Shown here piece by piece: positions 15,041 to 59,676 of a stretch of 64,000 bases of DNA. Position 1 is the first letter of the stretch, and each line of letters begins with the position of its first letter. This DNA is from an uncultured Acidimicrobiales bacterium (GTDB taxonomy: Bacteria; Actinomycetota; Acidimicrobiia; Acidimicrobiales; SZUA-35). The notes beneath the pieces are model-generated. The model was not told the DNA's origin. It saw only the letters and a list, made by a program, of their open reading frames with translations, and made no database searches. The position numbers and the translations under genes were made by a program. Location of the stretch: contig CAVZHQ010000001.1 of the NCBI GenBank assembly GCA_963775125.1, positions 79,209 to 143,208 on the forward strand, read 5' to 3'.

Positions 15041-16074
15041 ATGACCCGACGACTGACCCAGTTCAGCCACGGCGCTGGTTGAGCCTGCAAGCTCGCCCCC
15101 GGCGACCTGGCGCACGTGCTGCGCCGTCTGACTCCGTCGAACGATCGTCGACTTCTGGTCGATGCAACCACTGGTGACGACGCTGCCGTCTGGCAGATCG
15201 ACGACGACCGCGCGCTTGTTGTCACCGCCGACTTCATCACCCCCCTGGTCGACGACGCCTACACGTGGGGTCGCATCGCCGCGGCCAACTCGGTGTCCGA
15301 CGTCTACGCCATGGGCGGCAGGCCGTTGCTGGCTCTGAATCTGGTCGGCTGGAACACCGAGGAACTGTCGAACGAGCTCCTCGGTGAGGTCCTGGCCGGT
15401 GCGGCTTCGATCGCGGCCGCCGCCGGCTTCGTCATTGCGGGCGGCCACACCGTCGACGATCCCGAACCCAAGTTCGGGCTGGCGGTCGTCGGTGAGGTCC
15501 ACCCGGCCCGGATCCTCACCAACGCGGGTCTGAAGCCCGGGCAGTCCCTGGTGCTCACCAAGCCGTTGGGTATCGGGATCATCTCCACTGCGCTCAAGCG
15601 AGGGCACGAGTTTGCCGCCGAGACCTTCGAGCAGGCCGTCGTCGAGATGACGCGCGCTCAACGATCATGCCGCTCGTATCGCTCTGGCCGCCGGAGCCAC
15701 CGGTGCAACCGACGTCACCGGCTTCGGGTTGCTCGGGTCATCTCGGCCGAGCCGTCCTCGAGTCACATGTCGACGCCGACCTTGACCTCGCGTCGGTGCC
15801 CTTCCTCCCAGGAGTGCGCCAACTGGCCGAGGACGGTTTCATCCCCGGCGGGTCCCAACGGAACCTGGCCCACATCAGCCCCCAGCTCGATGCCGGCCCG
15901 ATCGACGAACTGTTCCAGGTCATGCTGGCCGACGCGCAGACGTCGGGTGGTCTGGTGTTCGGCGTCGATTCGGTCGACGCCGACGCCGTGGTGGCCGAAC
16001 TCGTTGCGCTCGGTCATACGGCCGCCGTCATCGGCCGCACCCGCGTCGGATCGGGTCGGATCGTGGTCCGATGA
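15041..16074 (+). CDS. selD: selenide, water dikinase (selenophosphate synthetase); Sec (UGA) at codon 14; frame broken twice by apparent 1-nt insertions (~15655, ~15736)
   Basis: SD GGAGGTG then ATG 15041. MTRRLTQFSHGAG-TGA-ACKLAPGDL continues in frame into ORF 15116... The middle segment LNDHAARIALAAGATGATDVTGFGLLG is in a second frame, and the C-part is ORF 15667..16074 (HLGRAV..VIGRT). The span is 1034 nt, which is 3n+2. Confidence 0.85.
15080..15125 (+). promoter_or_regulatory. selD UGA-Sec codon plus candidate SECIS hairpin GGCGCA-CGUGC-UGCGCC (15109-15125)
   Basis: Read directly. The hairpin assignment is tentative. Confidence 0.5.
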
Positions 16075-16490
16075 TGACGCCTTCCGACGTTCACGTTTCC
16101 ACCATTGCCGTCCGTTTCAACGAGCTCGACCCGTACGCCCACGTGAACCACGCGGTGTATGCGACCTATTGCGAGGTTGCGCGCACGGAAGCGCTCGCCG
16201 CCATTGGGCTGTCGATCGAGGAGCTGGCGCGCCAGGGCTTCCAGTTCGTCGTCACCGAGTTGAGCCTGCGGTTCCGCAAACCAGCCGTCGCCGGAGACAT
16301 CCTGTCGGTCGACACGTGGCTGTCGGAGATCGGCCGTGCCAGTACGCGCTGGTCGCAACGCATCCGGCGGGGCGACGAACTGTTGGTCGAAGCCGAGTTG
16401 AAGGTCGGTGTCGCCAATGGCCTCGGCCGGCCGACGCGGCCGACGCCCGAGATGGTGGCCACGCTCGAGGCACTTCACCGATCGCGGTGA
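16071..16490 (+). CDS. acyl-CoA thioesterase, 4HBT/YbgC-like hotdog fold
   Basis: ORF 16071..16490. Motif VRFNELDPYAHVNHAVY. The ATG overlaps the selD stop (ATGA). Confidence 0.8.
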   Translation: MMTPSDVHVSTIAVRFNELDPYAHVNHAVYATYCEVARTEALAAIGLSIEELARQGFQFVVTELSLRFRKPAVAGDILSVDTWLSEIGRASTRWSQRIRRGDELLVEAELKVGVANGLGRPTRPTPEMVATLEALHRSR

Positions 16491-16501
16491 GGTAGGCCAC
16501 G

Positions 16502-16774
16502 ATGAGCTTCATCGGCGTCGGGGGCGAGGACTGGGTCGAACTCGACATGGACCTCTTCGACCGGCAGCGGCTCAGTCGCCTGCGTGGTGCGCTGACCGAC
16601 GCTGAGGAACGGCGGGCGATCGGCCTGGCGATCGGCACCGACTACGAAGTCGAGTTCGATGATGTCGGGAACGCGTTCCTGCTCGTCGGCGGGGTTCGCC
16701 GGTTCCAGGCCGAGATCACCAACAGCGACCGATTGATGCTCACGGGAATTCTCGATCCCGACGGACCCCTGTAA
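16502..16774 (+). CDS. hypothetical small protein (90 aa)
   Basis: ORF 16502..16774 fills the gap between flanking same-strand genes. No family recognised. Confidence 0.4.
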   Translation: MSFIGVGGEDWVELDMDLFDRQRLSRLRGALTDAEERRAIGLAIGTDYEVEFDDVGNAFLLVGGVRRFQAEITNSDRLMLTGILDPDGPL

Positions 16775-16784
16775 GAATCTGCCG

Positions 16785-18562: not shown

Positions 18563-18609
18563 ACCCCTCCGATGGTAGTAGCGACCCAAGCAGACGGCCG
18601 TTGGCTTTT

Positions 18610-18677
18610 CGCAACCGCTCCAAACTCGCAACCGCTCCAAACTCGCAACCGCTCCAAACTCGCAACCGCTCCAAACT
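18610..18677. repeat. 17-bp tandem repeat CGCAACCGCTCCAAACT x4
   Basis: Read directly. It abuts the hairpin element, and the unit shares CGCAACCG with the hairpin 5' arm. Confidence 0.95.
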
Positions 18678-18731
18678 CGCAACCGTGTGCAGTGCGCACC
18701 TCTGGGAGGGGCAGAACTGCACACGGTTGCG
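18678..18731. repeat. dispersed hairpin element, copy 1: 16-bp perfect stem CGCAACCGTGTGCAGT / ACTGCACACGGTTGCG, loop containing CCTCTGGGAGGGG
   Basis: Read directly. A near-identical copy lies at 43876-43936. Confidence 0.85.
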
Positions 18732-18736
18732 ATTGT

Positions 18737-18800
18737 TCATGCCGGGTCGGCGGCGTCCGCCGCCTCGATCATGCCGGGTCGGCGGCGTCCGCCGCCTCGA
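18737..18800. repeat. 32-bp tandem duplication x2 of the serB 3' end including its stop codon
   Basis: GCCGGGTCGGCGGCGTCCGCCGCCTCGATCAT occurs twice (18741 and 18773). Both minus-strand ORFs end ..IEAADAADPA. Confidence 0.9.
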
Positions 18801-19965: not shown

Positions 19966-19980
19966 CGTACCGTCGCTCGA

Positions 19981-22900
19981 TCAGCCACCGGAAAAGTTGA
20001 ACCGGCCAACCGACGCGAATCGCAGGTCTCCGGCCTCCTCGTTCTTGACCACGGTGGGCTGCGCCCCGAGACATCGGCCGACGGCAACTCCCGACCCCGT
20101 CCATTCCCAGCACGCGGACAGATCGGTGGAGGTATTCGGTACGGCCATCGACAGGGAGGTGCCGGCGGGTGCACCCGTCAGCTGGGCCTCGAAACCGTCG
20201 TCCCATTGGCCGAGCGCCGCCGGGGGTCGGGTCCGTGCTTCGCCGAACACGTCGGACGAGTCGTCCCACGCCATGAAGTCGATCACGTCTCCATCGGTGT
20301 CGAGGAGCCACAGGTCGTCGCCGAAAGCATCGAGGACCGCCCAGGGTCGATTCGCCTCGTACGAAACGACACTCCCGGGTGCCGCGGGGAACGGCCCGCC
20401 GCCTGCGCTGCTGTCGGGATTGGTTGTCCAGACGATCACCGACTGTCCCGGGCCCAACATCACCGGGTCGAACGAGACCTGGAACGAGGTGTCGAAGGGG
20501 ATGATGGTGACCCAGAAGATGTCGTGGAGGCCGTCGACCGGGTCGAAGTCCTGGAGGCGTAGACCGTCGAGGGAGACGGGATCGCTGCTCACGTTGGTCA
20601 CCTCGATGAACTCATCGATCACGACGAACTGCTCGGACTCGGCGTACAACACCTCGGTGATGGCCAACGCGCCCGACAGACCCGATCGCCCGTACTCCGA
20701 GATCGTGAAGAGGAAGCTCGTGCTCGCCTCCGCGCCGGACGGATCGGCTACCACCAGGGTCACGGTGGACGAACTCCCCTTGGTCGACGGGTCGGCGTCA
20801 CCGGAGATGATTCCGGTGACGCCGTCGATCGAGAGCCCCGCCGGCAAACCGGTGGCGGTGAAGGTCAGCGTGTCGCCGTCTGAGTCAGAGGCCAACACCG
20901 CCAGCGAGAAGGGCACCCCGGCAGCGCCGGCCTGATCCGCCACGGCCTGGAGGACCGGTGTGTCGTTGACCCCGATGACCGTGACCGTGCCGGCACCGGC
21001 GCCGCAGAGCCCACCGGGATCGCACACCGTGTAGGTGAACGCTGCGGTCCCTACGAAGTCCGGTGGTGGCGTCCAAGTAGCCTCGGTCGTGCCGAACGTG
21101 ATCGTGCCGACAGCAAAGGTGATCCCGGTTGCCGTGAGTGGATCACCGTCGACATCGACGTCGTTGGCGGCCAACGATGCGTGGCCGATCGTCAGCGGCG
21201 TGTCCTCCAACGTGGCGAACGCGTCGGTTGCGGCCACCGGGGCGTCGTTCACCGGCGAGACGCTGATCACCCCAGTGGCCGAGGTACACAGTCCGAGTGG
21301 ATCACACGCGTCGTAGACGAAGGTGGCCGGGCCATGGAAGTTCGGCGGCGGAGTCCACACGAACGCGTCGGAATCGACGGTCAACGTCCCTGTGCCGAAC
21401 CTGAGGTCGGCAACGGTCAAGGCATCTCCGTCCGGGTCGCTGTCGTTGGCCGGCAGCGTGGCCAACAAGACGGTCACCGGCGTGTCCTCGGTTCCGGCCA
21501 CGAGGTCGTCCGCCGGAGTCGGCGGGTCGTTGACGGGAACAACCGCAATGGTGGCAACGGCAGGGCTGCAGGCAAGTGAGGGGTCACAGACTTCGTAGCC
21601 AACCGTCGCCGGGCCGTCGTAGTCGGTCGGCGGTGTCCACAAGTACCCGTCGGGGGTGGTGCGGCCGGTTCCGATACTGGAGGTCAGCCAGCGGATCGAC
21701 GGTCGGTCGCCGTCGGGATCCACGTCGTTTGCCAAAACCTGGGCGGTCAGCAGAACGAGGTCGACGTCCTCGTTGACCGAGTAGCTCTCGCCTGCAGCGA
21801 CGGGTGTGTCGTTGACGGCCAACACCGTAATGGTTGCGACGGCGGGGTCCGAACAGCCGACGGAAGGGTCACAGACGGTGTATTCGAACGTATCGGTTCC
21901 GTTGGCGTTCGGGTTCGAGGTGTAGATCGCAACCCGTTGGTGGCCGAGAGGGGCGCCGGCGGTTTCGCCTTGTCCGCTTGTCGCTGCGTCGCCCGGCGCC
22001 GCAGTCGCAGTGGCCGCGGTGAATCGGACCGAACCAAAGGATGGAGCTCGAGTAATGCTGAACACCGCCAGCCCTCCGTCGGTGGTCGCCTCGAGCGTGA
22101 CGGCGAGAGTGCTGTCCTCTGCGGTCGTGGCACGAACTGCGAACGCGGTCGGCCGAATGGGGGCGGCGGTGGTCGTCGTGGTCGAGGAGACCGTCGTTGG
22201 CGGGGTGGTCGTGCGGGGAATGGTGGTTGGTCCCACGCTCGTCGCGGGCCGTGCCGCCGTGGATGCTGTTGGCGGAAGGCTCGGAGCCGTCGTGGTCGGA
22301 GCCTGGGTCGTCGATGGTCCCTCGATGGTGATGACGGTGGTCGTTGGCTCTCCAAGCTCACCGCTCGTGGTGCTGGTGGTTGCGTTGCCGGTCGAGTTGA
22401 CGGAGGTCGTGGTCTCCTCGACGAAGGCCAGGGCCGGTGGCGGTTCCTCGGGCAGCAGGGCTCCCCCGAAGCCGCCGGTGACGAACGCCGCTCCGGCCGT
22501 CACCAGAGCGGTCACACCTGTGGCAAGCGGCGTGGCGACGGGGGCGAGGGGGACCTGGGACACGGCCGGCAGATTGGCGGCCCACGACAACGGTCCGATG
22601 GCCAGCCGGAGCCGGCCGATTCCGATGTTGAGGAAGGCGCGGGCGACGCGGGGGTCGAACTGGGTCCCGGCGCAGCGGGCAATCTCGGCTCGAGCGACAT
22701 CGGCCGGCATTGGCTTCTTGTAGGAACGGACCGACGTCATCACGTCGAAGGCGTCGGCCACGGCGACGATGCGGGCACCGAGGTGGATGTCATTGCCGGA
22801 CAACCCGAACGGATAGCCGTCGCCGTCCCATCGCTCGTGGTGCTGCGACACCGCGTTGTGCCACTCGCCGAGCCAGGGTTTCAGCGGGGCGATGAGCTTG

Positions 22901-25067: not shown

Positions 25068-25074
25068 GCGTCGC

Positions 25075-25557: not shown

Positions 25558-25579
25558 AGGGGTATCATGCCGTGACAAC

Positions 25580-25695
25580 AAACGCCGGGGAGCTCGAGGC
25601 AGTCGGGCTGAGAGGGTCGTCAGGGGTCGGCATCGCCGGCGGCCGGCGCGGCCGACCCGAGAACCTGCTCTGGATAATTCCAGCGAAGGAAGGCC
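25580..25695 (+). promoter_or_regulatory. TPP (THI-box) riboswitch upstream of thiB
   Basis: GGGCTGAGAGGGTCG...CGACCCGAGAACCTGCTCTGGATAATTCCAGCGAAGGAAGG matches the conserved CUGAGA and ACCUGAUCUGGAUAAUACCAGCG cores. It ends 5 nt before ATG 25700. Confidence 0.85.
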
Positions 25696-25699
25696 AACC

Positions 25700-26818
25700 A
25701 TGATGTACCCGTTCGGGGATTCCTCCGACAGGACGCCCCTCCCGACAGTTCGTCCCTCGTCAGTCCCTCTCGCGAGAAGCGGCGTCATCCGGGCGGCCGC
25801 ACTCGCGTGCTCCGTGGGACTCGCGGCCGTTTCCTGTGGCGGCAGTTCCGACTCGGCAGCGCCGGGACCGGTGACGCTGACCCTCGTCACCCACGAGTCG
25901 TTCACCGTCTCGGACGGGATCTTCGATTCGTTCACCGCCGAAACCGGGATCACGGTCGAAACCGTCGGCGCCGGCGATGCGGGTGAGATGGTCTCCCGTG
26001 CGATCCTGTCGAAGGGCCAGCCCGAAGGCGACGTTCTGTTCGGGATCGACAACACGTTCCTCCAGCGAGGCCTCGATGCGGAGATTTTCGTGGCGCACGA
26101 ATCGCCGATGCTCGAGTCGGTCCCCGAAGCATTGCGGCTCGACCCCGAGCACCGAGTCACGCCGATCGACTACGGGGACGTTTGCGTCAACTACTGGATC
26201 GATGCCCTGCCGGGAGATCCGCCGACGTCCCTGGACGACCTGGCCGAGCCCGAGCTGGCATCGTCGTTCGTCACCGAGAATCCGGAGACGTCCTCGCCCG
26301 GGTTCGCGTTCCTGCTCGCCACCATCGCTACCTACGGCGAAGACGGCTGGGAGGACTACTGGCAGCGCCTGGCCGACGGCGGGGTCACCATCGAGGCCGG
26401 CTGGGAAGAGGCGTACTACGCCCAGTTCGCCGCTGGGGGTGGTGACAAAGCGTTGGTCACCAGCTACGCCTCGAGCCCGGTGGCGGAGGTTCTCTTCGCC
26501 GATCCACCGGTCGACACTGCGCCCACCGGTGTGCTGACCGATTCGTGCTTCCGGCAGATCGAGTTCGCCGGGATCCTCGAGGGCACCGACCATCCGGACG
26601 AGGCGGGCAAGCTCATCGACTTCCTGCTGTCGCCCGAGTTCCAGGCAGACATTCCGCTCAAGATGTTCGTTGCGCCGGCGAACGCCGACGTCGCCCTGCC
26701 CGCTGCGTTCATCGAGCACGGCGTGACGGTCGAGAACCCGCTGACGCTGACGCCACAGGAGATCGAAGAGCATCGTTTGGCTTGGACGGAGCGGTGGACC
26801 GACATCGTTCTGCGCTGA
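25700..26818 (+). CDS. thiB: thiamine ABC transporter substrate-binding lipoprotein
   Basis: In-frame part of ORF 25532..26818 from ATG 25700. Signal/lipobox AAVSCGG. Type-II SBP resembling ThiB/TbpA, and the riboswitch context supports the call. Confidence 0.8.
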   Translation: MMYPFGDSSDRTPLPTVRPSSVPLARSGVIRAAALACSVGLAAVSCGGSSDSAAPGPVTLTLVTHESFTVSDGIFDSFTAETGITVETVGAGDAGEMVSRAILSKGQPEGDVLFGIDNTFLQRGLDAEIFVAHESPMLESVPEALRLDPEHRVTPIDYGDVCVNYWIDALPGDPPTSLDDLAEPELASSFVTENPETSSPGFAFLLATIATYGEDGWEDYWQRLADGGVTIEAGWEEAYYAQFAAGGGDKALVTSYASSPVAEVLFADPPVDTAPTGVLTDSCFRQIEFAGILEGTDHPDEAGKLIDFLLSPEFQADIPLKMFVAPANADVALPAAFIEHGVTVENPLTLTPQEIEEHRLAWTERWTDIVLR

Positions 26819-28401: not shown

Positions 28402-29465
28402 CTTTCCCCGAGAGCAGCGGCGACGGACTGGGCGACTCTGGACTGGGCGACTCTGGACTGGGCGACTCTGGACTGAAGGTGTCGAAGCTCACCGTTCGCT
28501 ACGGCGAGACGTTGGCGCTCGACGGCGTCGATCTGCACGTACCCGCCGGTTCGATCGTCGCCGTCATCGGCCCGAGCGGTTGCGGCAAGAGCACCCTGCT
28601 GCGAGCGGTCGCCGGGATCGAGAAGCCGACTGCCGGGTCGGTCGAGCTCAACCGACGCGTGCTGGATCGGGTGCCAACGCACCTGCGTGGCGTCGGGCTC
28701 ATGTTCCAGGAGCACGCACTGTTCCCCCATCTCACCGTGGGGGAGAACGTGGGCTTCGGCCTCCAGTACGCCGGGCTGGCCGATCACCTGCGCGTGGATC
28801 GGGTACGCGAGTTGCTCGCACTCGTCGGTCTGGAGGGAACCGCCGACCGTGCGATCGATGAGCTGTCCGGCGGCGAAGCTCAGCGGGTTGCATTGGCGCG
28901 CGCCCTCGCTCCGTCGCCGGGACTCTTGATGCTGGACGAGCCACTCGGTTCTCTGGATCGGATGTTGCGGGAGCAGTTGGTGGGGGAACTGGGCCGAGTC
29001 ATTCGCCGGCAGGGCATGACGGCGGTGCACGTCACCCACGACCAGGCCGAAGCCTTTGCGTTGGCCGATGAGGTCGTCGTGCTCCGGGAGGGCCGCGTGC
29101 AGCAGGTCGGGACACCCGAGGAACTCTGGTGCCGGCCCGTGTCGCCGTTCGTCGCCGACTTCCTCGGGCATCCCAATCTCTGGGCCCGAGGCGACGAGAC
29201 GGTGCTCGTGCCCGTTGGCGGTCTGTGCCCTGCAACCCCCGGCCCGACCGGCGTGGCCCGCCGCGGGACGGTCGAGGCCTCGACGTTTCGGGAGGGGCAC
29301 TACCGGGTGACGGCCACGAGCACCGACGATCACGCAGGAGAGTCGTTGGTGTTCGATTCTGCAACCGCGCTGTCGGCCGGGTCCGACGTCGAACTGGTCA
29401 TCGACACCGCTCAGCTGTGGACCATGCCGACCGAGCGGCCGTTGGGCCCGACTCAGACGTCGTAA
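28398..29465 (+). CDS. thiQ: thiamine ABC transporter ATP-binding protein with N-terminal GLGDS x3 repeat
   Basis: ORF 28398..29465. The ATG overlaps the thiP stop (ATGA). Walker A GPSGCGKST, signature LSGGEAQR, Walker B LLMLDEP. Confidence 0.85.
   Translation: MTFPESSGDGLGDSGLGDSGLGDSGLKVSKLTVRYGETLALDGVDLHVPAGSIVAVIGPSGCGKSTLLRAVAGIEKPTAGSVELNRRVLDRVPTHLRGVGLMFQEHALFPHLTVGENVGFGLQYAGLADHLRVDRVRELLALVGLEGTADRAIDELSGGEAQRVALARALAPSPGLLMLDEPLGSLDRMLREQLVGELGRVIRRQGMTAVHVTHDQAEAFALADEVVVLREGRVQQVGTPEELWCRPVSPFVADFLGHPNLWARGDETVLVPVGGLCPATPGPTGVARRGTVEASTFREGHYRVTATSTDDHAGESLVFDSATALSAGSDVELVIDTAQLWTMPTERPLGPTQTS
28425..28475. repeat. 15-bp tandem repeat GGACTGGGCGACTCT x3 plus a partial copy, in frame in the thiQ 5' end
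   Basis: Read directly. Perfect copies at 28425, 28440 and 28455. Confidence 0.95.
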
Positions 29466-30371: not shown

Positions 30372-31103
30372 GTGGCCTCCTATCCTTCTCGACGATCTGC
30401 GTTTGAACCGACAGCTTTTCCTCCGACAGCCTTTCATCCAACAGCATTTCATCCAACAGCAGAGCACGAACGATTCCAGTGGACCGGGCGGTGGTTTACG
30501 CGGCTGACTCGGACGCTGGCACACCTGGAGCTTCCCGAGGTGTTGCCGCTGCCCGACAACCGGCCGGTCATTCTCGCAGCCAATCACCGCAGTCTGCTCG
30601 ACCTCGCGATCGCGATGGCGGTCTTCAGCCGGTTCGGCCTTTCGAGCCGGATCCAGATCAGGGCCGATCTCATGGAACGAGGGCCTGGGGCCAAGCTGCT
30701 GCACGGCATCGGAGCGATCCCCACGTCGACCAAGCTTCGAGAGTCCTCGGAGCGGGCATCGATCGAGGCCGTTGCTGCCGGTCACCTTCTGTCGCTGATG
30801 CCCGAGGGGCGCCTCTGCAAACCCGAGGAGTGGGTGCGTGGCGTGGGGCCTGGTCGGCCGGGGGTGTCCCGAATCGCGTTGGCCACCGAGGCCGTCGTCG
30901 TGCCGATCGGGTTCAGCGGGACCGAACGGGTCTGGCCACGCGGCCGGCCGCCGAGGTTCCAGGTACCTCGGCCCCAGATCCGCGTCGGCGTCGGCCCTCC
31001 CGTCGAGCTGGCCAGCACGAGTCACGCCGACAACAGTCGGCAGGTGATGGAAGCCATCGCTGATGTGCTGGTCGCGCTCGAGGACCCGCACGCGGTGGCC
31101 TGA
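30372..31103 (+). CDS. lysophospholipid (1-acyl-glycerol-3-phosphate type) acyltransferase with N-terminal PTAF-repeat
   Basis: ORF 30372..31103. HX4D motif NHRSLLD and PEGR motif. The start is uncertain. Confidence 0.72.
   Translation: MASYPSRRSAFEPTAFPPTAFHPTAFHPTAEHERFQWTGRWFTRLTRTLAHLELPEVLPLPDNRPVILAANHRSLLDLAIAMAVFSRFGLSSRIQIRADLMERGPGAKLLHGIGAIPTSTKLRESSERASIEAVAAGHLLSLMPEGRLCKPEEWVRGVGPGRPGVSRIALATEAVVVPIGFSGTERVWPRGRPPRFQVPRPQIRVGVGPPVELASTSHADNSRQVMEAIADVLVALEDPHAVA
30408..30467. repeat. degenerate 15-bp tandem repeat CC(G/A)ACAGC(N)TTTCAT x4
   Basis: Read directly. Units at 30408, 30423, 30438 and 30453. Confidence 0.8.
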
Positions 31104-35904: not shown

Positions 35905-37548
35905 TCAGGTGAGCTTCTTGACCAGCTTCACCTTGGCGATGTCGGCGGGGGCGGCAAGGGCGGTCATGGCCAGCTCGTAGTCGGGGATCGCATGCACCTC
36001 GCCGTCGTCGCCGATCATGACGAAGCGGTCGAGGCTGGCCAGGAACGTGCGGTCGTGGCTGACGGCGACCACGGTTCCCAGGAAGCCGTCGAGGGCCTTC
36101 TCCAGCGCCTCGGACGACTCGATGTCGAGGTTGTCGGTCGGCTCGTCGAGGAGCAGGACGTTGTGGCCTTCGAGCTCGAGACACAGGACCTCGAGGCGCG
36201 CCTTCTGGCCGCCGGAGAGGGTCTCGAACTCCTGTCGGGCGTGCTGGGCCAGGCCATAGCGGGCCAGGGACTTCATCGCCTTCTCGTCCTCCTGGGTGCG
36301 GTCTCGGACGATGTCGAAGCAATCACGGCCGAGGAAGTCCGGCCGGTCGTTGATCTGGGTGAACGTCCCCACCGAGGTTCTCGGCCCGAACGAGACGCTG
36401 CCCTCGTCGGCCTCGATCGTGCCGGCCAACGCGCCGAGGAGGTGGCTCTTGCCTGTGCCGTTCGGCCCGATCAACCCGACGCGCTCGCCGAAGTAGATCT
36501 CTTCGGAGAAGGGGAAGAACAAGTCGCCGACGGAGAGTTGGTCGAGCACCACCACACGACGGGCCGAATCGGCGCCGCGCAGGTTGACCGAGATGAACTG
36601 GTCGGGCACGGGAGGGGGCGGCGGGCCGATGGCGACGAACTTCTCCCAACGGGTCTCGGCGGCGTTGGCCTTCGTGGCGTTCTTGAAGTTCTGGGCGGCC
36701 CGCTGCTTCATGATCTTCATGTGGTGGAACAGCCGACGTTCCTCGTCGTTCCAGCGCTTGAGCGCGTCGCCGAGCAGCTCCTGGCGTCGGGCTCGGGCGT
36801 CGGGGAAGGTCTTGTACGAACCACCGTGGACCCAGCAGCCTGACCCCTCGATGACCACGATCTTGGTGGCCACCGACTCGAGCAGGGCGCGGTCGTGGCT
36901 GACCATCAGGATGGTCGACTTGCACGCTTTGATCTGTTCCTCGAGCCACACGCGCGTCGGGATGTCGAGGTAGTTGTCCGGCTCGTCGATGAGGAGCACG
37001 TCGGCGCCCGAGGTCAGCAACAGGTCGAGCACGAGGCGTTTGCGTTCGCCGCCCGACAGCTCGGAAACGAGCCGGGTGCCGAAGTCCTCCACCGGCGTCT
37101 TGACGCTGCGGCGGGCGGCTGCGGCCCACTGGGCCTCGAGTTCGTAGCCGCCGAGATCGCCCCAGTCGGTGAGCGCAGTGGCGAAGGCCATGCCGTCGTC
37201 CTCGCCCGAGAGCATGGCGGCTTCGGCCGCCACCATGGCCCGGCCCGCGGTGCGAAGCTCGAACGGGGCGACCTCGATGAGCATCTGCCGGAGCGAGTCG
37301 GTCGGTCGAGCCATGCCGACGTCCTGGGTCATCGACAGGAAGCTTCCGCCGATGGCGAAGTCTCCGTCGTCGGGGACGAGCTCGCCCGCCAGGATCCGCA
37401 GGATCGTCGACTTGCCGACCCCGTTGGCTCCGACGAGGGCGGCGTGCTCTCCAGGGCTCACCCCGAAACTCACCTCGAAGAACAGCGAGTCGGCCCCGGG
37501 AGGCGCGTATTCGAGTTCGGAGACGACGATGCTGGACACGACGCCCAT
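35905..37548 (-). CDS. ABC-F family ATPase (two ABC domains, no TMD)
   Basis: ORF 35905..37821 from MGVVSS (ATG 37548). Walker A motifs GANGVGKST and GPNGTGKSH, with signatures LSGGERKR and LSGGQKAR. Confidence 0.88.
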   Translation of the reverse strand: MGVVSSIVVSELEYAPPGADSLFFEVSFGVSPGEHAALVGANGVGKSTILRILAGELVPDDGDFAIGGSFLSMTQDVGMARPTDSLRQMLIEVAPFELRTAGRAMVAAEAAMLSGEDDGMAFATALTDWGDLGGYELEAQWAAAARRSVKTPVEDFGTRLVSELSGGERKRLVLDLLLTSGADVLLIDEPDNYLDIPTRVWLEEQIKACKSTILMVSHDRALLESVATKIVVIEGSGCWVHGGSYKTFPDARARRQELLGDALKRWNDEERRLFHHMKIMKQRAAQNFKNATKANAAETRWEKFVAIGPPPPPVPDQFISVNLRGADSARRVVVLDQLSVGDLFFPFSEEIYFGERVGLIGPNGTGKSHLLGALAGTIEADEGSVSFGPRTSVGTFTQINDRPDFLGRDCFDIVRDRTQEDEKAMKSLARYGLAQHARQEFETLSGGQKARLEVLCLELEGHNVLLLDEPTDNLDIESSEALEKALDGFLGTVVAVSHDRTFLASLDRFVMIGDDGEVHAIPDYELAMTALAAPADIAKVKLVKKLT

Positions 37549-37608
37549 CCTGCCAGCGAGAGGCGAATCTCCGACGGTTCGCCGCGAGCTTTGCCGTAGG
37601 GTTGGTCG

Positions 37609-39255
37609 ATGCGCGCTCCTGAACCGATCAGCTTGCAGCACGAGCTCGCAGTCCTGGAGCAGGCGCGGGTGGCGGTGCAAGCGAAGCTCCAGCGGCTGAA
37701 GGACATCAAGGCCGATGGAGCCGATGCCGTGACCGCTGACTACATCGCGTCCGTCATCGCCGGCACGGTCGAGAAGCTCACGCAGGAGCTGGTGGTGTTC
37801 GGCCGGATCGACGACGAGCACGCGTGGCGGATCGGGCTCTACGGCATCGACGATGGGTCCAACCAGCTCGTGGTCGACTGGCGGGCGCCCTTCGCCGCGA
37901 ACTTCTACCAGGCCCGATTCGACGAGCCGCTGGGACTCGAACGGAGGGTCAGCTACGTCGGCAGCATCGTCGACCTGATGGTCGAAGAGTTTTCGACAGG
38001 AGAGGTCACCGGGTCATCTCCGCTCCTCACCGAGCTGTCGCGCTCCCGTGGGGACGTGATGCGCACGGCGGTGGCGACCCTGCAGTCCGAACAGGACGAG
38101 TTGGTCCGGCTCTCGCCCGAGGCCACGCTGGTCATTCGGGGCGGGCCGGGCACCGGCAAGACGGTGGTCGGCCTGCATCGTGCCGCCTGGTTGGTCTACA
38201 ACGACACCCGGCTCACCGCCGATCGTCTCCTGGTCGTCGGCCCTTCGGACCGTTTCCTGACCTATGTTGCCAGCGTGCTTCCCACGTTGGGAGAAGCACG
38301 CATTCATCAGACGACCTTCGAACGTCTGCTCGGTCCATCGTCGGTGCCCGGAAGCGACGAGCGCTGGATCGAAGCGCTCGATCGCTTCGAGGCGGGGCTG
38401 TTGCAACCGGCCGAGTTCAAGGTGGGTGCGCGCACGATCCCCGAATACGAGGTGGTCGAAGCCGTCGAGCGGGTCTCCAAGCTGAACCTGCCGTGGCGAG
38501 ATCGGCGCAAGCTGTTCGTCGACGGTCTGGCTCGAGCGCGGAACCTTCCGGCCAAGGACGTCAACAGAGCGGCGTCGTCGGTGTTCCCCGCGGTGACCCC
38601 GGCACAGGCCATGAAGGCGCTGCGGCGTCGGCCGACCCTCGAATCGATCGGGCTCTCGTCGGACTTCATCGATGCCTGGCTGGCGGTCGATCACGGCTCA
38701 CGATTTGAAGGGCCGCTGGCCGATGAGGTCCAGGCCCGGTTCGCCGGGGTGCCGGCCCGTTACTCGCATGTGATCGTCGACGAAGCGCAGGACCTCTCGT
38801 TGCTGCAGCTTCGTGCGGTGCTCCGCCGTTCCAAGGGCGTGACGGTCGTCGGCGACGACGCGCAGCGTTCGGCACCCAACAGCCTGGGGCTGCGGCGAGT
38901 GGCCGATCTGTTGGACAGCGAGTTGATCGAGATGCGCACGGCGTATCGGATGTCGGCCGAGATCGCCGACTGGCTCAACGAACACGCCGAGCGGTACTCG
39001 CTCGACGCCGTACACCTCGACGGTGTGCGCCCGACAGGCACGGACGTGCGCTCCGTGACGGCGGTCGGATCCGTCGGACCGGTTCTGGCCGACCTCCACG
39101 AACGATGGGGAACCGTCGCCCACATTCGGGCGGGTGAAGTGTGGCAGCACAAGGGCGTCGAGTACGACGCCGTGGTGGTCGACCGCAGCGGGATGTCGGC
39201 CGGCGAGATCTACCTGGCTGCCTCGCGCGCGGCCCACGAGCTGGTGTTGGCCTGA
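37609..39255 (+). CDS. helD: HelD-like UvrD-family helicase / RNAP-associated ATPase (short form)
   Basis: ORF 37609..39255. N-terminal DWRAPFAANFY, Walker A GGPGTGKT, and DEAQD. Confidence 0.68.
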   Translation: MRAPEPISLQHELAVLEQARVAVQAKLQRLKDIKADGADAVTADYIASVIAGTVEKLTQELVVFGRIDDEHAWRIGLYGIDDGSNQLVVDWRAPFAANFYQARFDEPLGLERRVSYVGSIVDLMVEEFSTGEVTGSSPLLTELSRSRGDVMRTAVATLQSEQDELVRLSPEATLVIRGGPGTGKTVVGLHRAAWLVYNDTRLTADRLLVVGPSDRFLTYVASVLPTLGEARIHQTTFERLLGPSSVPGSDERWIEALDRFEAGLLQPAEFKVGARTIPEYEVVEAVERVSKLNLPWRDRRKLFVDGLARARNLPAKDVNRAASSVFPAVTPAQAMKALRRRPTLESIGLSSDFIDAWLAVDHGSRFEGPLADEVQARFAGVPARYSHVIVDEAQDLSLLQLRAVLRRSKGVTVVGDDAQRSAPNSLGLRRVADLLDSELIEMRTAYRMSAEIADWLNEHAERYSLDAVHLDGVRPTGTDVRSVTAVGSVGPVLADLHERWGTVAHIRAGEVWQHKGVEYDAVVVDRSGMSAGEIYLAASRAAHELVLA

Positions 39256-41402: not shown

Positions 41403-41410
41403 CCGTCGTC

Positions 41411-41466
41411 GGGCTGTGCTGTCGTTTCGGGGTGTGCTGTCGTTGGGGTGCAGTACTGTCGGTGGG
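41411..41466. repeat. degenerate ~18-bp tandem repeat GGG(C/G)TGTGCTGTCGTT.. x3
   Basis: Read directly, between the mmyB-like stop and the rhodanese SD. Confidence 0.7.
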
Positions 41467-41511: not shown

Positions 41512-41919
41512 ATGGCCATCAAGTCCGTCGAGGAGATGATTGCGGCTGCTCGAGCCGAGATCGACAATCACACGCCGGCCGAAGCCAAGCGGCGAGTGGA
41601 CGAGGAAGGGGCGTTGTTGGTCGACATTCGCGACGTCCGCGAACTCGAACGAGAAGGGGTCGTGCCCGGTGCGTTCCATGCGCCGCGTGGCATGCTCGAG
41701 TTCTGGATCGATCCGGCATCGCCGTACTTCAAACCGGTGTTCGCTGAGGATCGAGAGTTCGTCCTCTATTGAGCGGGGGGCGGGCGGACAAGTTTGTCCG
41801 CAAAGGCTCTCAAGGACATGGGACTTCCCCGGGTGTCCCATATCGTCACCGGCTTCGGTGGATGGAAAGCCGATGGCCTGCCGGTCGTCGACTACCCCAC
41901 GTGGAAGGCCGCCAAGTAG
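41512..41919 (+). CDS. single-domain rhodanese sulfurtransferase with UGA (selenocysteine) at the catalytic Cys position (135 aa)
   Basis: SD AAGGAGGA then ATG 41512. ORF 41512..41772 ends ..REFVLY-TGA. The same frame continues AGGGRTSLSAKALKDMGLPRVSHIVTGFGGWKADGLPVV.. to TAG 41917-41919. Confidence 0.8.
41770..41801 (+). promoter_or_regulatory. UGA-Sec codon plus candidate SECIS hairpin GCGGACA-AGUU-UGUCCGC (41784-41801)
   Basis: Read directly. The hairpin starts 11 nt after the UGA and has G/U in the apical loop. Confidence 0.6.
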
Positions 41920-46175: not shown

Positions 46176-46193
46176 GGGTTCCTGTGGTTCGGA

Positions 46194-47114: not shown

Positions 47115-47184
47115 GGTGGACTCACGTTAGAGACTCGCGGGACCAAGACGTGGAATGAGGTGCGCCGATGAGTGACGAGGCAAC

Positions 47185-47226
47185 GGTGAAGAGGCAGCGG
47201 TGAAGAGGCAGCGGTGAAAAGGCAAG
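47185..47226. repeat. 14-bp tandem repeat GGTGAAGAGGCAGC x3 (third copy degenerate)
   Basis: Read directly. It overlaps the predicted GTG start at 47214. Confidence 0.85.
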
Positions 47227-47738: not shown

Positions 47739-47765
47739 CGTGCTCACGTGCCCCCGCCTTCCTCC

Positions 47766-47825
47766 TCAGACCAGCCATCCTCCGACCAGCCGGCGTCAGA
47801 CCAGCGATCCTCAGCCCAGCCATCG
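47766..47825. repeat. degenerate 15-bp tandem repeat TCAGACCAGCCATCC x4
   Basis: Read directly. It encodes SDQPS-type repeats only if ATG/GTG 47748 is used. Confidence 0.75.
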
Positions 47826-51711: not shown

Positions 51712-52046
51712 GCGTCAAGGTCGAACTGCACGAGTTGCCCGAGGCCGTTGGGCTGGTGGGACCAACCGTCTTCCTGCTCACGACCAACGCCGATGCTTCA
51801 CCGCACCCGGCCCACGTCAGTGTGACGTTCGCCGATGGGGTGTTCACCCTCTCGGCCGGGCGGCGGAGCTGTGCCAACAGCACCGACCGTCCCGCCATCA
51901 CGTTGTTGTGGCCGGCGAGCGAAGCCGATGCCATGAACCTCATCGTCGATGGGGTCGCTGAGACCGTTGTGACCGATGCCGGCGTGGTGACGGTGGCTCC
52001 CACCAGCGCCATGTGGCACCGGCAACCGGATCACCCGCCGCACTGA
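51708..52046 (+). CDS. small hypothetical protein, possibly PNPOx-like split-barrel
   Basis: ORF 51708..52046. The ATG overlaps the MMPL stop (ATGA). The family call is weak. Confidence 0.45.
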   Translation: MSVKVELHELPEAVGLVGPTVFLLTTNADASPHPAHVSVTFADGVFTLSAGRRSCANSTDRPAITLLWPASEADAMNLIVDGVAETVVTDAGVVTVAPTSAMWHRQPDHPPH

Positions 52047-52078
52047 TCACCCGCCATCACTGATCACCCGTCAACCCT
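52029..52078. repeat. ~16-17-bp tandem repeat GATCACCCGCC(N)CACT x3 including the stop codon region
   Basis: Read directly. CACTGA recurs at 52041 and 52058. Confidence 0.75.
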
Positions 52079-52099
52079 GAGCCGAGTTCTTCGCACCCC

Positions 52100-53224: not shown

Positions 53225-53257
53225 CCCAACCTCCGGCTGGAGGCGTCGGTCACCCCC

Positions 53258-53304: not shown

Positions 53305-53364
53305 CGGTGGTGGTGACGCTTGGGGCCGGAGGTTCGGCGGTGGGCGGGGTGGTCTCGGTCGGCG

Positions 53365-55075: not shown

Positions 55076-55136
55076 GCCGAGAGGTTACCAACGGCGGCGG
55101 GCGCCAAAGTTGGCTGTGAGCTGCGACAATCGAGCC

Positions 55137-57090
55137 ATGGCCACCTCGTCTCTTCCCCGGAACCGCCTCTCCACCGTCCGGCCGCGACTCACCACCCCGC
55201 TGCTCCGCGTCGACGGTGAACTTCGGCCGGCGTCGTGGGACGCGGCGCTCAGTCGGGTCGCCGACGGCTTCACCGCCGTCAAGGAACAGCACGGGCCGTC
55301 TGCGTTCGCCTTGTTCTCCTGTTCCAAGAGCACCAACGAGATGAACTACGCGGCCCAGAAGTTCAGCCGTCTGGCGTTGGGGTCGAACAACATCGACTCC
55401 TGCAACCGCACTTGACACGCTCCCAGCGTCGTCGGTCTGGCGACAGTGTTCGGTGCCGGTGGCGGTACCTGCTCCTATGAGGAGGTGGAGGAGGCTGACG
55501 TCATCCTCCTGTGGGGGTCCAACGCCCGCGAGGCCCACCCCATCTACTTCCACCATGTACTGAAAGCGCTCGACAAGGGCGGCCGGATGTACGCGGTCGA
55601 TCCTCGGCGCACCTCGTCGGCCAAGTTCGCCGACGTCTGGTTGGGACTGAACCTCGGGGCCGACGTCGCGTTGGCCAACACCATGGCCAATCACATCATC
55701 GGCCAGGGCCTGGTGAACCAGGCGTTCATCGATCACTCCACGGCTGGTTACGAGGCGTTCAAAGCAGCGGTCGCCCGCTACACCCTCGAGCGCGGCGCCG
55801 AGCTCACCGGGCTGCCGGCGTCGGTCATCGCCGAGATGGCCGAGGCCTATGCCACCGCCGGCTCGGCCCAGATCCTGTGGACCCTGGGCATCACCGAGCA
55901 CCACAACGCGGTCGACAACGTCGTTGCCCTGTGCAACCTGGCGCTGCTCACGGGCCATGTCGGCCGGTGGGGAAGCGGGCTGGTTCCGCTCCGGGGCCAG
56001 AACAACGTGCAGGGCGGCGGCGACATGGGCGCTCTGCCCAACAAGCTTCCGGGCTTCGCCGACATCGATGATCCGTCGGCTCGCGCCCGGTTCGCCGCGG
56101 TGTGGGGCGCGGAGGTTCCGCCCGACCCGGGCCTGCACCTCACGCTCATGTTCGAGGCCATGGAGGCCGGAACCATCCGGGCGGCCTACATCCTGGGGGA
56201 GAACCCCGCGGACTCCGAGGCCGACGTCGCCCATGCCCGCAAGCTGCTGGCCGGACTCGACCTCCTCGTCGTCCAGGACATCTTCCTCACCCGCACCGCC
56301 GAGCTGGCCGACGTGGTGCTTCCCGCGTCGGTGGGCTGGGCCGAGTGCGAGGGCACGGTCACCTCGTCGGAACGGCGGGTACAACGGGTGCGCCCGGCGG
56401 TTCCTCCGCCGGGCGAGGCTCGCCACGACCACGAGATTCTCGGCGAGTTGGCGCGCCGCATGGGCGTCGACTGGGGAGACCCCTCGCCCCAGGACCTCTG
56501 GAACGAAGTGCGATCGTTGTCTCCCCTCCACGCGGGGATGTCCTACGAACGACTCGAGACCGAGGGAGGGCTGCAGTGGCCGTGCCCCGATCTCGATCAT
56601 CCCGGATCCCCCTTCCTGCATGGCTGGCTGTGGGAGGCCGATCTCGGCGGTCGGCCCCCGGCACCGTTCTCGGTGGTCGAGCACGCGGGCCCGAAGGAAG
56701 AGCTCTCCGAGCAGTTCCCCCTGCGACTCACCACCGGCCGGGCCCTCGACTCGTACAACACCGGCGTCCAGTCCGGCTCGCTCGACGCCCCGATCCGCTA
56801 CGGCGATGCCATCGACGTGAACCCCCTCGACGCGTCCGCCCTCCAGGTGGTCGACGGGGAGCGCGTGCGGGTCAGCTCGCCCCGGGGCTCGGTCGAGATG
56901 CCGGTACGCGTGCAACCGGACCTGCCGGTCGGCCTCACCTTCACCACGTTCCACTTCCCCGAACTCGTCGACCTCAACGTGCTCACCAATCCCGGAATGG
57001 GATCCTCGATCCGGAACCTCGGAGTTCAAGGCTGCCGCCATTCGGATCGACAAGTTGGATCCGTCCATCGCAGGCGTGCCCCGTGTCTGA
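55137..57090 (+). CDS. fdhA: formate dehydrogenase catalytic (Mo/W-bisPGD) subunit lacking the N-terminal Fe-S domains; Sec (UGA) at 55413-55415; apparent 1-nt insertion near 56996
   Basis: ATG 55137. ..NIDSCNRT-TGA-HAPSVVGLATVFGAGG.. joins ORF 54981..55415 to ORF 55446..57137 in frame. The C-terminus WDPRSGTSEFKAAAIRIDKL..V-TGA (57088-57090) is in the next frame. The span is 1954 nt, which is 3n+1. Confidence 0.85.
55413..55444 (+). promoter_or_regulatory. UGA-Sec codon plus candidate SECIS hairpin GUCGUC-GGUCU-GGCGAC (55428-55444)
   Basis: Read directly. There are 12 nt between the UGA and the stem, and the apical GGUCU is formed by the conserved Gly-Leu codons. Confidence 0.7.
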
Positions 57091-58852
57091 CCTGCACTTC
57101 ACCGCCGATCAGGCGTCGCCGGACGAGCAGGCGGTGATCGATGCCGTCCTGGCCGGGCTCGGAACCGACCCCGCCACCAGCGCAGAGGGCGAACGGGTCG
57201 TGCGGGGCGGAGTTCGCCGCCGAAACGAGCGTCGCCACGTGCTGTTGCCGGGGTTGCACGGATTGCAGCGAGCCTCGGGCTGGATCACGCCCGGAGGGCT
57301 CAACTACCTCTGCGCCCAGCTCGGGGTTCCACCGGCGGAGGCGTACGGGGTCGCCTCGTTCTACGACCTGTTCCGCACCGAGGACCCTGGTCACACCGAT
57401 TCGGTCCACCACGTCTGCATCGACGCGGCGTGCCAGATTGCCGGCGCCGACGACCGAATCGCCGAACTGGAAGCGGCCGGCCATCACGTGCATCGCAGCC
57501 CGTGCCTCGGCCAGTGCGAGCGGCCGGTCGCAGTCTTCGTCCAAGGGCGAGGTCGTGAGGACGCGGTCCCGATCGATGAGTCGGAGCCCACGGGATCAGG
57601 CAGTATTCCGCAGCGGTACGATCCCTCGCTCGTCCTGCTGGCTCGGGTCGGACGGGTCGAACCCACCTCGCTCGAGTCCTACGTCGGCGCCGGTGGCTAC
57701 AAGGCCCTGGCCAAGGCATTCACGCGGGGCGCCGGCGGCGTGATCGACGAGATCCTCGCGTCGGGCCTCAGCGGGCGTGGCGGCGCTGCATTCCCGACCG
57801 GCGTCAAACTGCGGGCGGTCGCCGCCGAGCCTGGCCCCCGCTACGTGGTGGCCAACGCCGACGAGTCCGAGCCGGGAACCTTCAAGGACCGGATCGTGAT
57901 GGAGAACGATCCGTTCGCCGTGATCGAGGCCCTGACCATCGCCGGCTTTGCCGTGGGCGCAAGCAAGGGCTGGATCTACATCCGGGGCGAGTACCCGCTG
58001 GCGACCCGGCGGCTGCAGGGAGCAATCGACGCTGCCCGCGAGGCGGGCTTTCTCGGTGAACGCATCGCCCGGTCGTCGTTCTCGTTCGACATCGAGATCC
58101 GTCGGGGGGCCGGCGCCTACATCTGTGGCGAGGAGACGGCGCTGTTCAACTCACTCGAGGGTTTCCGGGGCGAGCCTCGCCAGAAACCTCCGTTCCCGAC
58201 GACCCACGGTCTGTTCGGTCGTCCGACTGCGGTGAACAACCCGGAGACACTGCTCAACCTGCTCGAGATCGTCACCAACGGTGGAGACGCCTACGCGGCC
58301 ATCGGGACCGAGGGATCGAAGGGGCGCAAGCTGTTCTGCGTGTCGGGCAACGTGAAGACGCCGGGACTCTACGAAGTGCCGTTCGGGCCCACCCTCCGAG
58401 ACATCCTCGACCTCGCCGGCGGGGTCGACGGCGAGTTGCAGGCGGTTCTGCTCGGCGGTGCCGCCGGCTCGTTCGTCACGCCCGACCAACTCGACGTCCC
58501 CTTGACCTTCGAGGGCACCCGGGCGGCGGGACTCTCGCTGGGTTCAGGCGTCGTCATGGCCTTCAACCGATCGGTCGATCTGGCCGCGGTGGTGACCCGC
58601 ATCGCCGAGTTCTTCCGGGACGAATCCTGCGGACAATGCGTGCCATGCCGAGTCGGTGCGGTCCGCCAACACGAGCTCCTCGTCCGAACCGGCACCCGAC
58701 TCACCCCACCCGACCTCGTGCTGCTCGACGACATGGACCGGGCCATGAAGGACGCGTCCATCTGTGGTCTCGGCCACACGGCGTGCACCGCCGTCCGTTC
58801 GGCGTTGTCGCTCGGGCTCCTCGAAACACCTGCCAACGGAGGCCCGCAATGA
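57083..58852 (+). CDS. NuoE-like (2Fe-2S) fused to NuoF-like (FMN/NAD, 4Fe-4S) diaphorase subunit of NAD-dependent formate dehydrogenase
   Basis: In-frame part of ORF 56102..58852 from GTG 57083. NuoE Cys motif region (CIDAAC..CLGQC). NuoF motifs GRGGAAFPTG, ESEPGTFKDR and ESCGQCVPCR. Confidence 0.85.
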   Translation: MSDLHFTADQASPDEQAVIDAVLAGLGTDPATSAEGERVVRGGVRRRNERRHVLLPGLHGLQRASGWITPGGLNYLCAQLGVPPAEAYGVASFYDLFRTEDPGHTDSVHHVCIDAACQIAGADDRIAELEAAGHHVHRSPCLGQCERPVAVFVQGRGREDAVPIDESEPTGSGSIPQRYDPSLVLLARVGRVEPTSLESYVGAGGYKALAKAFTRGAGGVIDEILASGLSGRGGAAFPTGVKLRAVAAEPGPRYVVANADESEPGTFKDRIVMENDPFAVIEALTIAGFAVGASKGWIYIRGEYPLATRRLQGAIDAAREAGFLGERIARSSFSFDIEIRRGAGAYICGEETALFNSLEGFRGEPRQKPPFPTTHGLFGRPTAVNNPETLLNLLEIVTNGGDAYAAIGTEGSKGRKLFCVSGNVKTPGLYEVPFGPTLRDILDLAGGVDGELQAVLLGGAAGSFVTPDQLDVPLTFEGTRAAGLSLGSGVVMAFNRSVDLAAVVTRIAEFFRDESCGQCVPCRVGAVRQHELLVRTGTRLTPPDLVLLDDMDRAMKDASICGLGHTACTAVRSALSLGLLETPANGGPQ

Positions 58853-59676
58853 CCGACATCACCCTCACGGTCGACGGCCGAACGGTCACCGCCGAACCGG
58901 GTCAGACGATCCTCGAGGCGTGCAACAACGAGGGCATCGAGACCCCGACGCTCTGCTGGGCCGCCAACCTCACCCCGGTGAACGTCTGCCGGGTCTGCGT
59001 GGTCGAAGTCGCGGGCTCGCGAACCCTCGTCCCTGCATGCTCCCGTCCGGTCGAGGAGGGCATGGAGGTCCTCACCGACTCCGACCGGGTTCGTCACAGC
59101 CGCAAGATGGTGCTCGAGTTCCTCGGTTCGGGTGTCGATCTGTCGCAGGCAGAAGCACTCCAGGGGTGGGCCGACCACTACGGCGCCGAACCCGGCCGCT
59201 ACGTCGAGCCGCAGACCATGAACGAGGAGGTGAAGATCCAGGACAACCTCTACATCCGTGACTACGACAAGTGCGTGCTGTGTTACAAGTGCGTCGAGGC
59301 GTGTGGCGACGACGCGCAGCACACCTTCGCGATCGCCGTGTCCGGTCGAGGGTTCGGGGCAAGGATCTCCACCGAGTTCGATGTCGCCCTGCCCGAATCG
59401 GCCTGCGTCTACTGCGGCAACTGCGTGGGTGTCTGCCCGACGGGAGCGCTGCAGTTCACGACCGAGTTCGATCTGCGAACGGCCGGCAACTGGCGGCCGG
59501 AGACACAAACGGTCACCCGGACGGTGTGTTCCTATTGCGGCGTCGGCTGCAACCTGGAGCTGCACGTCCAGGACGAGACGATCGTGAAGGTGACCTCGCC
59601 CGCAGATCACTCGGTGACGTCGGGGCACCTGTGCATCAAGGGACGCTTCGGCTGGAACTACGTCCAGCCGATGTGA
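58849..59676 (+). CDS. NuoG/FdhA N-terminal Fe-S module (2Fe-2S, 4Fe-4S ferredoxins, Mo-enzyme 4Fe-4S domain) encoded as a separate protein
   Basis: In-frame part of ORF 58636..59676 from ATG 58849 (ATGA overlap). Motifs CRVCVVEV, CVLCYKCVEAC, CVYCGNCVGVCP and CSYCGVGC..HLCIKGRFGWNYVQ. Confidence 0.85.
   Translation: MTDITLTVDGRTVTAEPGQTILEACNNEGIETPTLCWAANLTPVNVCRVCVVEVAGSRTLVPACSRPVEEGMEVLTDSDRVRHSRKMVLEFLGSGVDLSQAEALQGWADHYGAEPGRYVEPQTMNEEVKIQDNLYIRDYDKCVLCYKCVEACGDDAQHTFAIAVSGRGFGARISTEFDVALPESACVYCGNCVGVCPTGALQFTTEFDLRTAGNWRPETQTVTRTVCSYCGVGCNLELHVQDETIVKVTSPADHSVTSGHLCIKGRFGWNYVQPM

Follow-up and report, generated by a model that had tools for sequence, protein, structure and literature searches.

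A 64,000-nucleotide (nt) stretch of contig CAVZHQ010000001.1 (assembly GCA_963775125.1; positions 79,209–143,208, forward strand), here called the window, contains three genes with an in-frame TGA: selD, which encodes selenophosphate synthetase (selenide-water dikinase), a single-domain rhodanese gene, and fdhA, which encodes the catalytic subunit of a formate dehydrogenase (FDH). The GC content of the window is 66.7%. Its best-named homologues and syntenic contigs belong to metagenome-assembled genomes (MAGs) of Acidimicrobiales and Acidimicrobiia, by which we assign the source to an uncultured Acidimicrobiales bacterium (class Acidimicrobiia, phylum Actinomycetota); an earlier reading of the letters without database searches, hereafter the sequence-only reading, had placed the gene content as actinobacterial, in agreement with these matches. 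Open reading frames (ORFs) were tested for family membership by profile searches (Pfam, NCBIfam) with selenocysteine (Sec, U) read as cysteine (Cys), and were compared with 174 loci from relatives, metagenomes and genomes (1.84 Mb in total; handles L001 to L174). In window coordinates, the three genes and the two that follow fdhA are as follows.

15041–16074, plus strand: selD, selenide-water dikinase (TIGR00476), with TGA at 15080–15082 in the motif GAG-U-ACK
41512–41919, plus strand: single-domain rhodanese of 135 amino acids (aa) (PF00581), with TGA at 41770–41772 in the active-site loop U-A-G-G-G-R
55137–57090, plus strand: fdhA, catalytic subunit with a molybdenum- or tungsten-bis-pyranopterin guanine dinucleotide (Mo/W-bisPGD) domain and without an N-terminal Fe4S4 domain (TIGR01591), with TGA at 55413–55415
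57083–58852, plus strand: NuoE/NuoF-like fusion subunit with 2Fe-2S, a flavin mononucleotide (FMN)/nicotinamide adenine dinucleotide (NAD) site and 4Fe-4S (PF01257, PF01512, PF10589)
58849–59676, plus strand: iron-sulfur (Fe-S) subunit of 275 aa, like the N terminus of NuoG/HoxU (2Fe-2S, two 4Fe-4S), with a C-terminal Molybdop_Fe4S4 domain (PF13510, PF04879)

Comparison with relatives identifies each of the three in-frame TGAs as a genuine, conserved recoding site, placed where a known selenoprotein family has its catalytic Cys or Sec. The selD gene starts at ATG 15041 and reads MTRRLTQFSHGAG-TGA(15080)-ACKLAPG. Its product reaches 368.8 bits against TIGR00476 (cut-off 125) and 353.4 bits against NF002098 (cut-off 299), and so belongs to the SelD family. 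The TGA and the 13 codons upstream of it are kept in five relatives, namely L001 and L002 (84% nucleotide identity), L003 (78%) and the more distant L173 and L174, and changes in these codons are synonymous or conservative only. Identity of SelD to database proteins is at most 93%, and many of its best 20 database matches are 310–323 aa long, that is, calls that start after the UGA. Directly 3′ of selD, and overlapping it by ATGA in the window, lies a gene for a 4HBT-fold thioesterase (16071–16490), followed by a 90-aa ORF and a lactamase_B/WHD_BLACT gene; the selD–thioesterase neighbourhood is kept across relatives (L001 at 10280, L003 at 9627, L174 at 10974).

The rhodanese gene runs from ATG 41512 through DREFVLY-TGA(41770)-AGGGRTSLSAK to its true stop, TAG at 41917–41919, with no frameshift. 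It matches PF00581 at 59.6 bits (cut-off 22.2) over profile positions 1–101 of 102, which makes it a full-length member, and the catalytic Cys of Protein Data Bank (PDB) entry 2hhg (loop CAGGLRS; C-x-x-G-x-R) aligns with the UGA. By its motif, U-A-G-G with Sec at the catalytic position, it is of the UxxG form; the CxU form (NF041203) was ruled out at 24.2 bits against a cut-off of 115. The TGA is present in 8 other assemblies. In four metagenome contigs an 86-aa N-terminal fragment had been called exactly, at 87–99% nucleotide identity and with the TGA kept; the TGA also occurs in two MAGs, L010 of Acidimicrobiales BC2.78 (79% aa identity) and L012 of Acidimicrobiia SZUA-35 (68%), and further in contigs L090 and L091. 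Across 159 homologues examined from the window, genomes and metagenomes, nine are TGA forms and 150 are Cys forms with TGC or TGT, and the family is abundant as the Cys form in Alphaproteobacteria. The window rhodanese belongs to a sub-clade found in Acidimicrobiia, in which the hairpin GGACAAGUUUGUC is invariant and the loop has the form U-[AG]-[GS]-G-G-R-T-S.

The fdhA gene starts at ATG 55137 and reads NIDSCNRT-TGA(55413)-HAPSVVGLA, and its product matches the Molybdopterin and Molydop_binding domains; its best solved homologues are 7qv7, 1aa6, 7e5z and 6tg9. The TGA is kept in L008 (89% nucleotide identity, syntenic across 45–64 kb of the window), L009, L170 and L171. Contig JBBSKA010000005.1 of the close relative GCA_038256755.1 has synteny with the window over 45–64 kb. 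Among the matches listed, all 120 FdhA database entries are post-Sec fragments of ~545 aa.

Both sides of each UGA are translated, as is shown by substitution patterns of purifying selection in the rhodanese gene and fdhA. Between the window and L007, the proportions of synonymous (pS) and non-synonymous (pN) differences in the rhodanese gene are 0.279 and 0 upstream of the UGA, and 0.240 and 0.009 downstream. For fdhA against L008 the corresponding values are 0.25 and 0.056 upstream, and 0.31 and 0.037 downstream.

Each UGA is followed by a hairpin resembling a selenocysteine insertion sequence (SECIS).

15109–15125, plus strand: SECIS-like hairpin of selD, GGCGCA-CGUGC-UGCGCC, starting 26 nt after the UGA
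41776–41811, plus strand: SECIS-like element of the rhodanese gene, with an inner hairpin GCGGACA-AGUU-UGUCCGC at 41784–41801 and an outer 6-bp stem
55428–55444, plus strand: SECIS-like hairpin of fdhA, GUCGUC-GGUCU-GGCGAC, starting 12 nt after the UGA

The inner rhodanese hairpin starts 11 nt after its UGA. All three are stem-loops with an apical loop that contains G and U (AGUU in the rhodanese gene, GGUCU in fdhA, CGUGC in selD), at positions that are conserved. The loop and register of the fdhA hairpin (GGUCU, ~12 nt after the UGA) match those of the E. coli fdhF SECIS. Rfam gave no SECIS match in the window at gathering or E-value thresholds, and Rfam is without a usable bacterial SECIS model. 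As folding energy gave no discrimination, the case for the hairpins rests on comparison with relatives, and it is most marked in the rhodanese gene, where the hairpin core GGACAAGTTTGTC is found in 9/9 TGA forms and in 0/150 Cys forms. The stem codons ACA-AGU-UUG make up 4.1%, 3.7% and 12.9% of the Thr, Ser and Leu codons in the window, a joint expectation of 2e-4. Since these rare codons stay unchanged even at 68% protein identity, the comparison indicates that the hairpin is constrained as RNA and not solely as protein. For fdhA and selD five sequences per gene were compared. Every cell of the fdhA hairpin is paired in all five, with one compensatory C-G to G-C exchange through two synonymous changes; in the selD hairpin, which lies at the same position in all five, 96.7% of cells are paired, and there is a single mismatch besides one compensatory G-C to C-G exchange.

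Outside these sites TGA is the usual stop codon, ending 55 of the 61 called coding pieces in the window; genome-wide reassignment of UGA is therefore rejected. A scan for further recoded UGAs by coding potential on both sides returned fdhA and three ordinary gene ends only, at thresholds that missed selD and the rhodanese gene, and is hence not exhaustive. ARAGORN found no tRNA of any kind in the 64-kb window, Rfam found no tRNA-Sec there at gathering or E-value thresholds, and neither SelA nor SelB was seen in it (Pfam and NCBIfam scans of ORFs, annotated syntenic relatives); the search of the source genome covered these 64 kb. Since they are not in these 64 kb, selA, selB and selC must, we infer, lie elsewhere in the genome, as is suggested by the conserved selenoprotein genes and by the Sec machinery reported in another order of the class: in Actinomarinales, selA, selC, selD, a divergent selB and a Sec-form SelD occur in all 84 complete genomes (bioRxiv 10.64898/2026.04.03.716425). 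The same preprint cites Peng et al. 2016 for Actinobacteria lacking the selenouridine trait. On the following points the sequence-only reading has held up. It had singled out the three TGAs (selD 15080, rhodanese 41770, fdhA 55413) as catalytic positions, had seen a hairpin within 11–27 nt of each (the measured starts are 11, 12 and 26 nt, at positions that are kept in relatives), had named TGA as an ordinary stop as well, and had reported no selA, selB or tRNA-Sec in the 64 kb; base-calling error at the three TGAs, which it gave as one of two findings that would overturn it, is contradicted by the recurrence of each TGA in 4 to 8 other assemblies.

We conclude that this uncultured Acidimicrobiales bacterium very probably decodes UGA as Sec at specific sites in selD, the rhodanese gene and fdhA, and that the frameshifts described below are likely assembly errors. 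In SelD, Sec would lie in the N-terminal glycine-rich loop, where selenophosphate is made from selenide and ATP; in the rhodanese it would take the place of the cysteine that forms the persulfide in the C-x-x-G-x-R loop; and in FdhA, which would be of the NAD type, it would serve as a ligand of the Mo/W cofactor. By analogy with E. coli, a complex of SelB, GTP and Sec-tRNA(Sec) would bind the hairpin 11–26 nt after the UGA and deliver Sec to the ribosome, and UGA elsewhere would end translation. The finding is an ordinary one, since all three genes belong to known selenoprotein families.

Several observations weigh against this conclusion. The folding z-scores of the hairpins (rhodanese −1.77, fdhA −0.47, selD −0.19) are unexceptional for 67% GC and, with folding energies so unremarkable, the hairpins alone are not beyond chance. 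The rhodanese hairpin shows invariance only, with zero covariation, and the covariation seen over five sequences per gene is not significant (62/500 and 90/500 shuffles reach the observed score). Three Cys rhodaneses (P0121, P0138 and P0148) retain the peptide GGRTSLS, which overlaps the hairpin in the Sec forms; comparison of these sequences suggests a recent Sec/Cys exchange inside the sub-clade. No tRNA-Sec was found by ARAGORN in any of the 174 loci, and no selA or selB was seen in the window or in those loci. Finally, selD and fdhA are frameshifted as written, and the status of the extra bases as errors comes from comparison with relatives and not from reads.

The frameshifts belong to a set of eight isolated 1-nt insertions or deletions (indels) that are specific to the window and, by alignment, absent from relatives at 82–98% identity, a rate of about one per 5–6 kb of compared sequence.

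6125: 1-nt insertion in a Mo-oxidoreductase gene
15655 and 15737: 1-nt insertions in selD
16995: 1-nt insertion in a lactamase_B gene
44076: 1-nt insertion in an amidase gene, seen against a 98%-identical contig
53603: 1-nt insertion in proS (essential)
56995: 1-nt insertion in fdhA
62214: 1-nt deletion in a TetR gene

The two insertions in selD break its frame relative to the aligned relatives, and removing both gives back a 343-aa ORF; the insertion in fdhA shifts the last ~31 codons. In 6/6 genes tested, a full-length ORF returned once the inserted base or bases were deleted (two in selD). That three of the eight indels fall within two of the three Sec genes could be taken to mean that the Sec trait is decaying, with the frameshifted selD and fdhA as real pseudogenes and the UGA genes as relics. 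We consider this very improbable, because similar 1-nt indels hit the essential proS and the lactamase_B, amidase, Mo-oxidoreductase and TetR genes, the affected genes are intact in relatives at 82–98% identity, the coding sequence is under normal purifying selection apart from the single inserted bases, and the rhodanese gene is without a frameshift. As the relatives lack them and even proS is affected, the indels are most likely errors of long-contig assembly, a judgement made from alignments and without read support; selD and fdhA are therefore probably intact in the organism itself. At 35905–39255 an ABC-F ATPase ORF (minus strand, 35905–37992) overlaps a HelD/HelR-like ORF (plus strand, 37609–39255) by nearly 400 nt and the HelD-like ORF matches the first third only of HelD profiles; the overlap may reflect a further indel or a truncated gene.

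The sequence-only reading had proposed a selenium relay in which carrier and activating enzyme are both selenoproteins; the Sec-rhodanese would then be a dedicated selenium carrier that passes perselenide to Sec-SelD. A rhodanese can carry selenium in vitro, selenouridine synthase contains a rhodanese domain, and the rhodanese and selD are both Sec forms in one genome, all of which would suit such a relay. The two genes are, however, 26 kb apart, and no selD lies near any rhodanese orthologue. The rhodanese neighbours in the window, which encode an MmyB-type regulator, a luciferase-like monooxygenase, a MaoC protein and an amidase, do not adjoin any of six Acidimicrobiia-type orthologues (L010, L011, L012, L014, L034 and L038) and give no functional clue. 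Moreover, GCA_024641625.1 (Acidimicrobiales Ww173) pairs a Sec-form selD with TGA (L003) with a Cys-form rhodanese orthologue with TGC (L011), so Sec-SelD and Sec-rhodanese do not travel together; the abundance of the Cys form in Alphaproteobacteria also speaks against a dedicated carrier. We regard the relay as a very unlikely explanation. Hardly more credible is the broader proposal that the Acidimicrobiia Sec-rhodanese sub-clade is a dedicated selenium-trafficking protein that holds perselenide or selenosulfide on its Sec and feeds SelD; if it were true, selenium would be needed for the first two steps of its own activation. Most likely the rhodanese carries out ordinary sulfur transfer or a redox reaction, with a catalytic residue of greater nucleophilicity. 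Of the sequence-only reading there stand the three recoded genes, which are conserved and under selection; the relay is unsupported, as nothing links the rhodanese to selD, and the frameshifts and the split FDH described below had escaped it.

There is next to no probability that the hairpins are chance structures in GC-rich DNA and that the three TGAs arose as nonsense mutations or base-call errors or serve as ordinary stops: the weak folding z-scores, the single base by which TGA differs from the Cys codons TGC and TGT in an assembly that does contain errors, and the use of Cys in 150 of the 159 rhodanese homologues are outweighed by the same TGA in 4 to 8 independent assemblies per gene, by purifying selection on the codons downstream of the UGA, by the perfect association of hairpin and TGA in the rhodanese gene, and by the fact that truncation would cost SelD, FdhA or the rhodanese either the catalytic residue or the greater part of the chain.

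The FDH occupies three genes, which is why the range of the sequence-only reading runs to 59676, and the domains of its alpha subunit are divided between two of the proteins. FdhA scores 631.6 bits against TIGR01591 over positions 51–672, and the curated whole-protein cut-off is 666.25. The Fe-S subunit adds 55.3 bits, with positions 1–49 on its residues 225–273, so that the sum exceeds the cut-off only across two polypeptides and the profile is split exactly between the two proteins: positions 1–49 on the C terminus of the Fe-S subunit and 51–672 on the catalytic subunit. The Fe4S4 and Mo-binding domains are accordingly not in one polypeptide, PF04879 being on the separate 275-aa protein. At their junction fdhA and the NuoE/F fusion gene share 8 nt, and the gene order of Sec catalytic subunit, NuoE/F fusion and Fe-S subunit is common to L008, L009, L170 and L171/L172 (~9700–14400 there). 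Mis-assembly as the source of the split was rejected; four other assemblies share both the order and the split, which by this comparison is the natural architecture of the clade. The FDH would consist of three polypeptides, with the Fe-S subunit providing the proximal Fe4S4 domain in trans, and its domain content suggests that electrons leaving Sec-Mo/W would travel along that Fe-S chain and reach FMN and NAD on the NuoE/F fusion. An FDH whose Sec catalytic subunit receives the proximal Fe4S4 in trans may be an undescribed sub-type.

In one of these relatives (L171/L172), two adjacent same-strand AhpC-TSA (peroxiredoxin-like) calls of 114 aa and >246 aa lie at 20606–21647, and the pair may be one UGA-interrupted selenoprotein gene.

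Elsewhere in the window, about ten short tandem arrays, with a period of 14–18 nt, 2–4.5 copies and a different unit in each, lie at gene ends or in intergenic spacers; several are absent from the relatives L001, L006 and L008 or have fewer copies there.

3823–3875, 5411–5457, 10894–10964, 18609–18685 and 28425–28475: tandem arrays
30411–30461, 41405–41450, 47172–47225, 47763–47824 and 52029–52080: tandem arrays

A full-length, sub-threshold match to the thiamine pyrophosphate (TPP) riboswitch (RF00059; 45.3 bits against a gathering threshold of 54.3, E = 1.2e-5) lies at 25576–25709 on the plus strand, just 5′ of a gene for an ATP-binding cassette (ABC) transporter substrate-binding protein (25871–26818), which is plausibly part of a thiamine transporter.

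The window places a working Sec trait in an uncultured lineage of Acidimicrobiales, with 64 kb encoding three selenoproteins, and joins recent evidence for common Sec use among marine and aquatic Acidimicrobiia. There is also a lesson here for annotation and assembly. Standard gene callers truncate the UGA genes, leaving a SelD of 318 aa, a rhodanese of 86 aa and an FdhA in pieces of 92 aa and 547 aa; the UGA genes are real and the frameshifts in the same genes probably are not, and a Sec trait of this kind is at risk of being wrongly read as artefact or as decaying. For work on why Sec takes the place of Cys, the rhodanese family supplies a clean natural pair of Sec and Cys forms.

Sec-SelD, Sec-FdhA and the UxxG Sec-rhodanese are all published families, and what is known of Sec decoding is unchanged by the window. 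No bacterial selenoproteins are more widespread than FdhA and SelD (PMC9312934). Sec/Cys polymorphism of SelD has already been published (Guimaraes et al. 1996, as quoted in bioRxiv 10.64898/2026.04.03.716425; also PMC9312934). The window SelD shares with the Sec-SelD of Haemophilus influenzae, Methanococcus and Actinomarina the TIGR00476/NF002098 equivalog, a hairpin downstream of the UGA, and the placing of this UGA in the N-terminal loop G-x-G-(U/C)-x-C-K; it differs in being a new sequence (no more than 93% identical to those in the database) with two 1-nt insertions in the assembly. Its hairpin, 26 nt after the UGA, starts further from it than those of the window rhodanese and fdhA.

A rhodanese-related sulfurtransferase was predicted as a selenoprotein family from Sargasso Sea metagenomes (PMC1088965), and rhodanese selenoproteins with the UxxG motif (forms 2 and 4) are listed in a 2026 review (PMC13188914). 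The window rhodanese resembles these published UxxG selenoproteins, by domain and motif, in its single PF00581 domain, in Sec in place of the catalytic Cys, and in U-x-x-G. Its closest solved structure is the Cys rhodanese RPA3614 of Rhodopseudomonas palustris (PDB 2hhg; E = 2.3e-37 over residues 5–126), with which it shares the motif RGMLEFWIDP and the active-site loop; at the UGA position RPA3614 carries Cys, and its loop reads CAGGLRSA in contrast to UAGGGRTS.

The FDH has a NuoE/NuoF fusion partner, as in the Fdh1B subunit of Methylobacterium. With the alpha subunits of known Sec-FDHs (E. coli FdhH; the NAD-type FdsA/Fdh1A) it has in common the Mo/W-bisPGD domain and Sec in the motif C-x-R-x-U-H-x-P-S. 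Unlike in those enzymes, alpha is split and its parts are permuted within the operon: the NuoG-like Fe-S module together with Molybdop_Fe4S4 makes up a 275-aa protein of its own, whose gene comes last.

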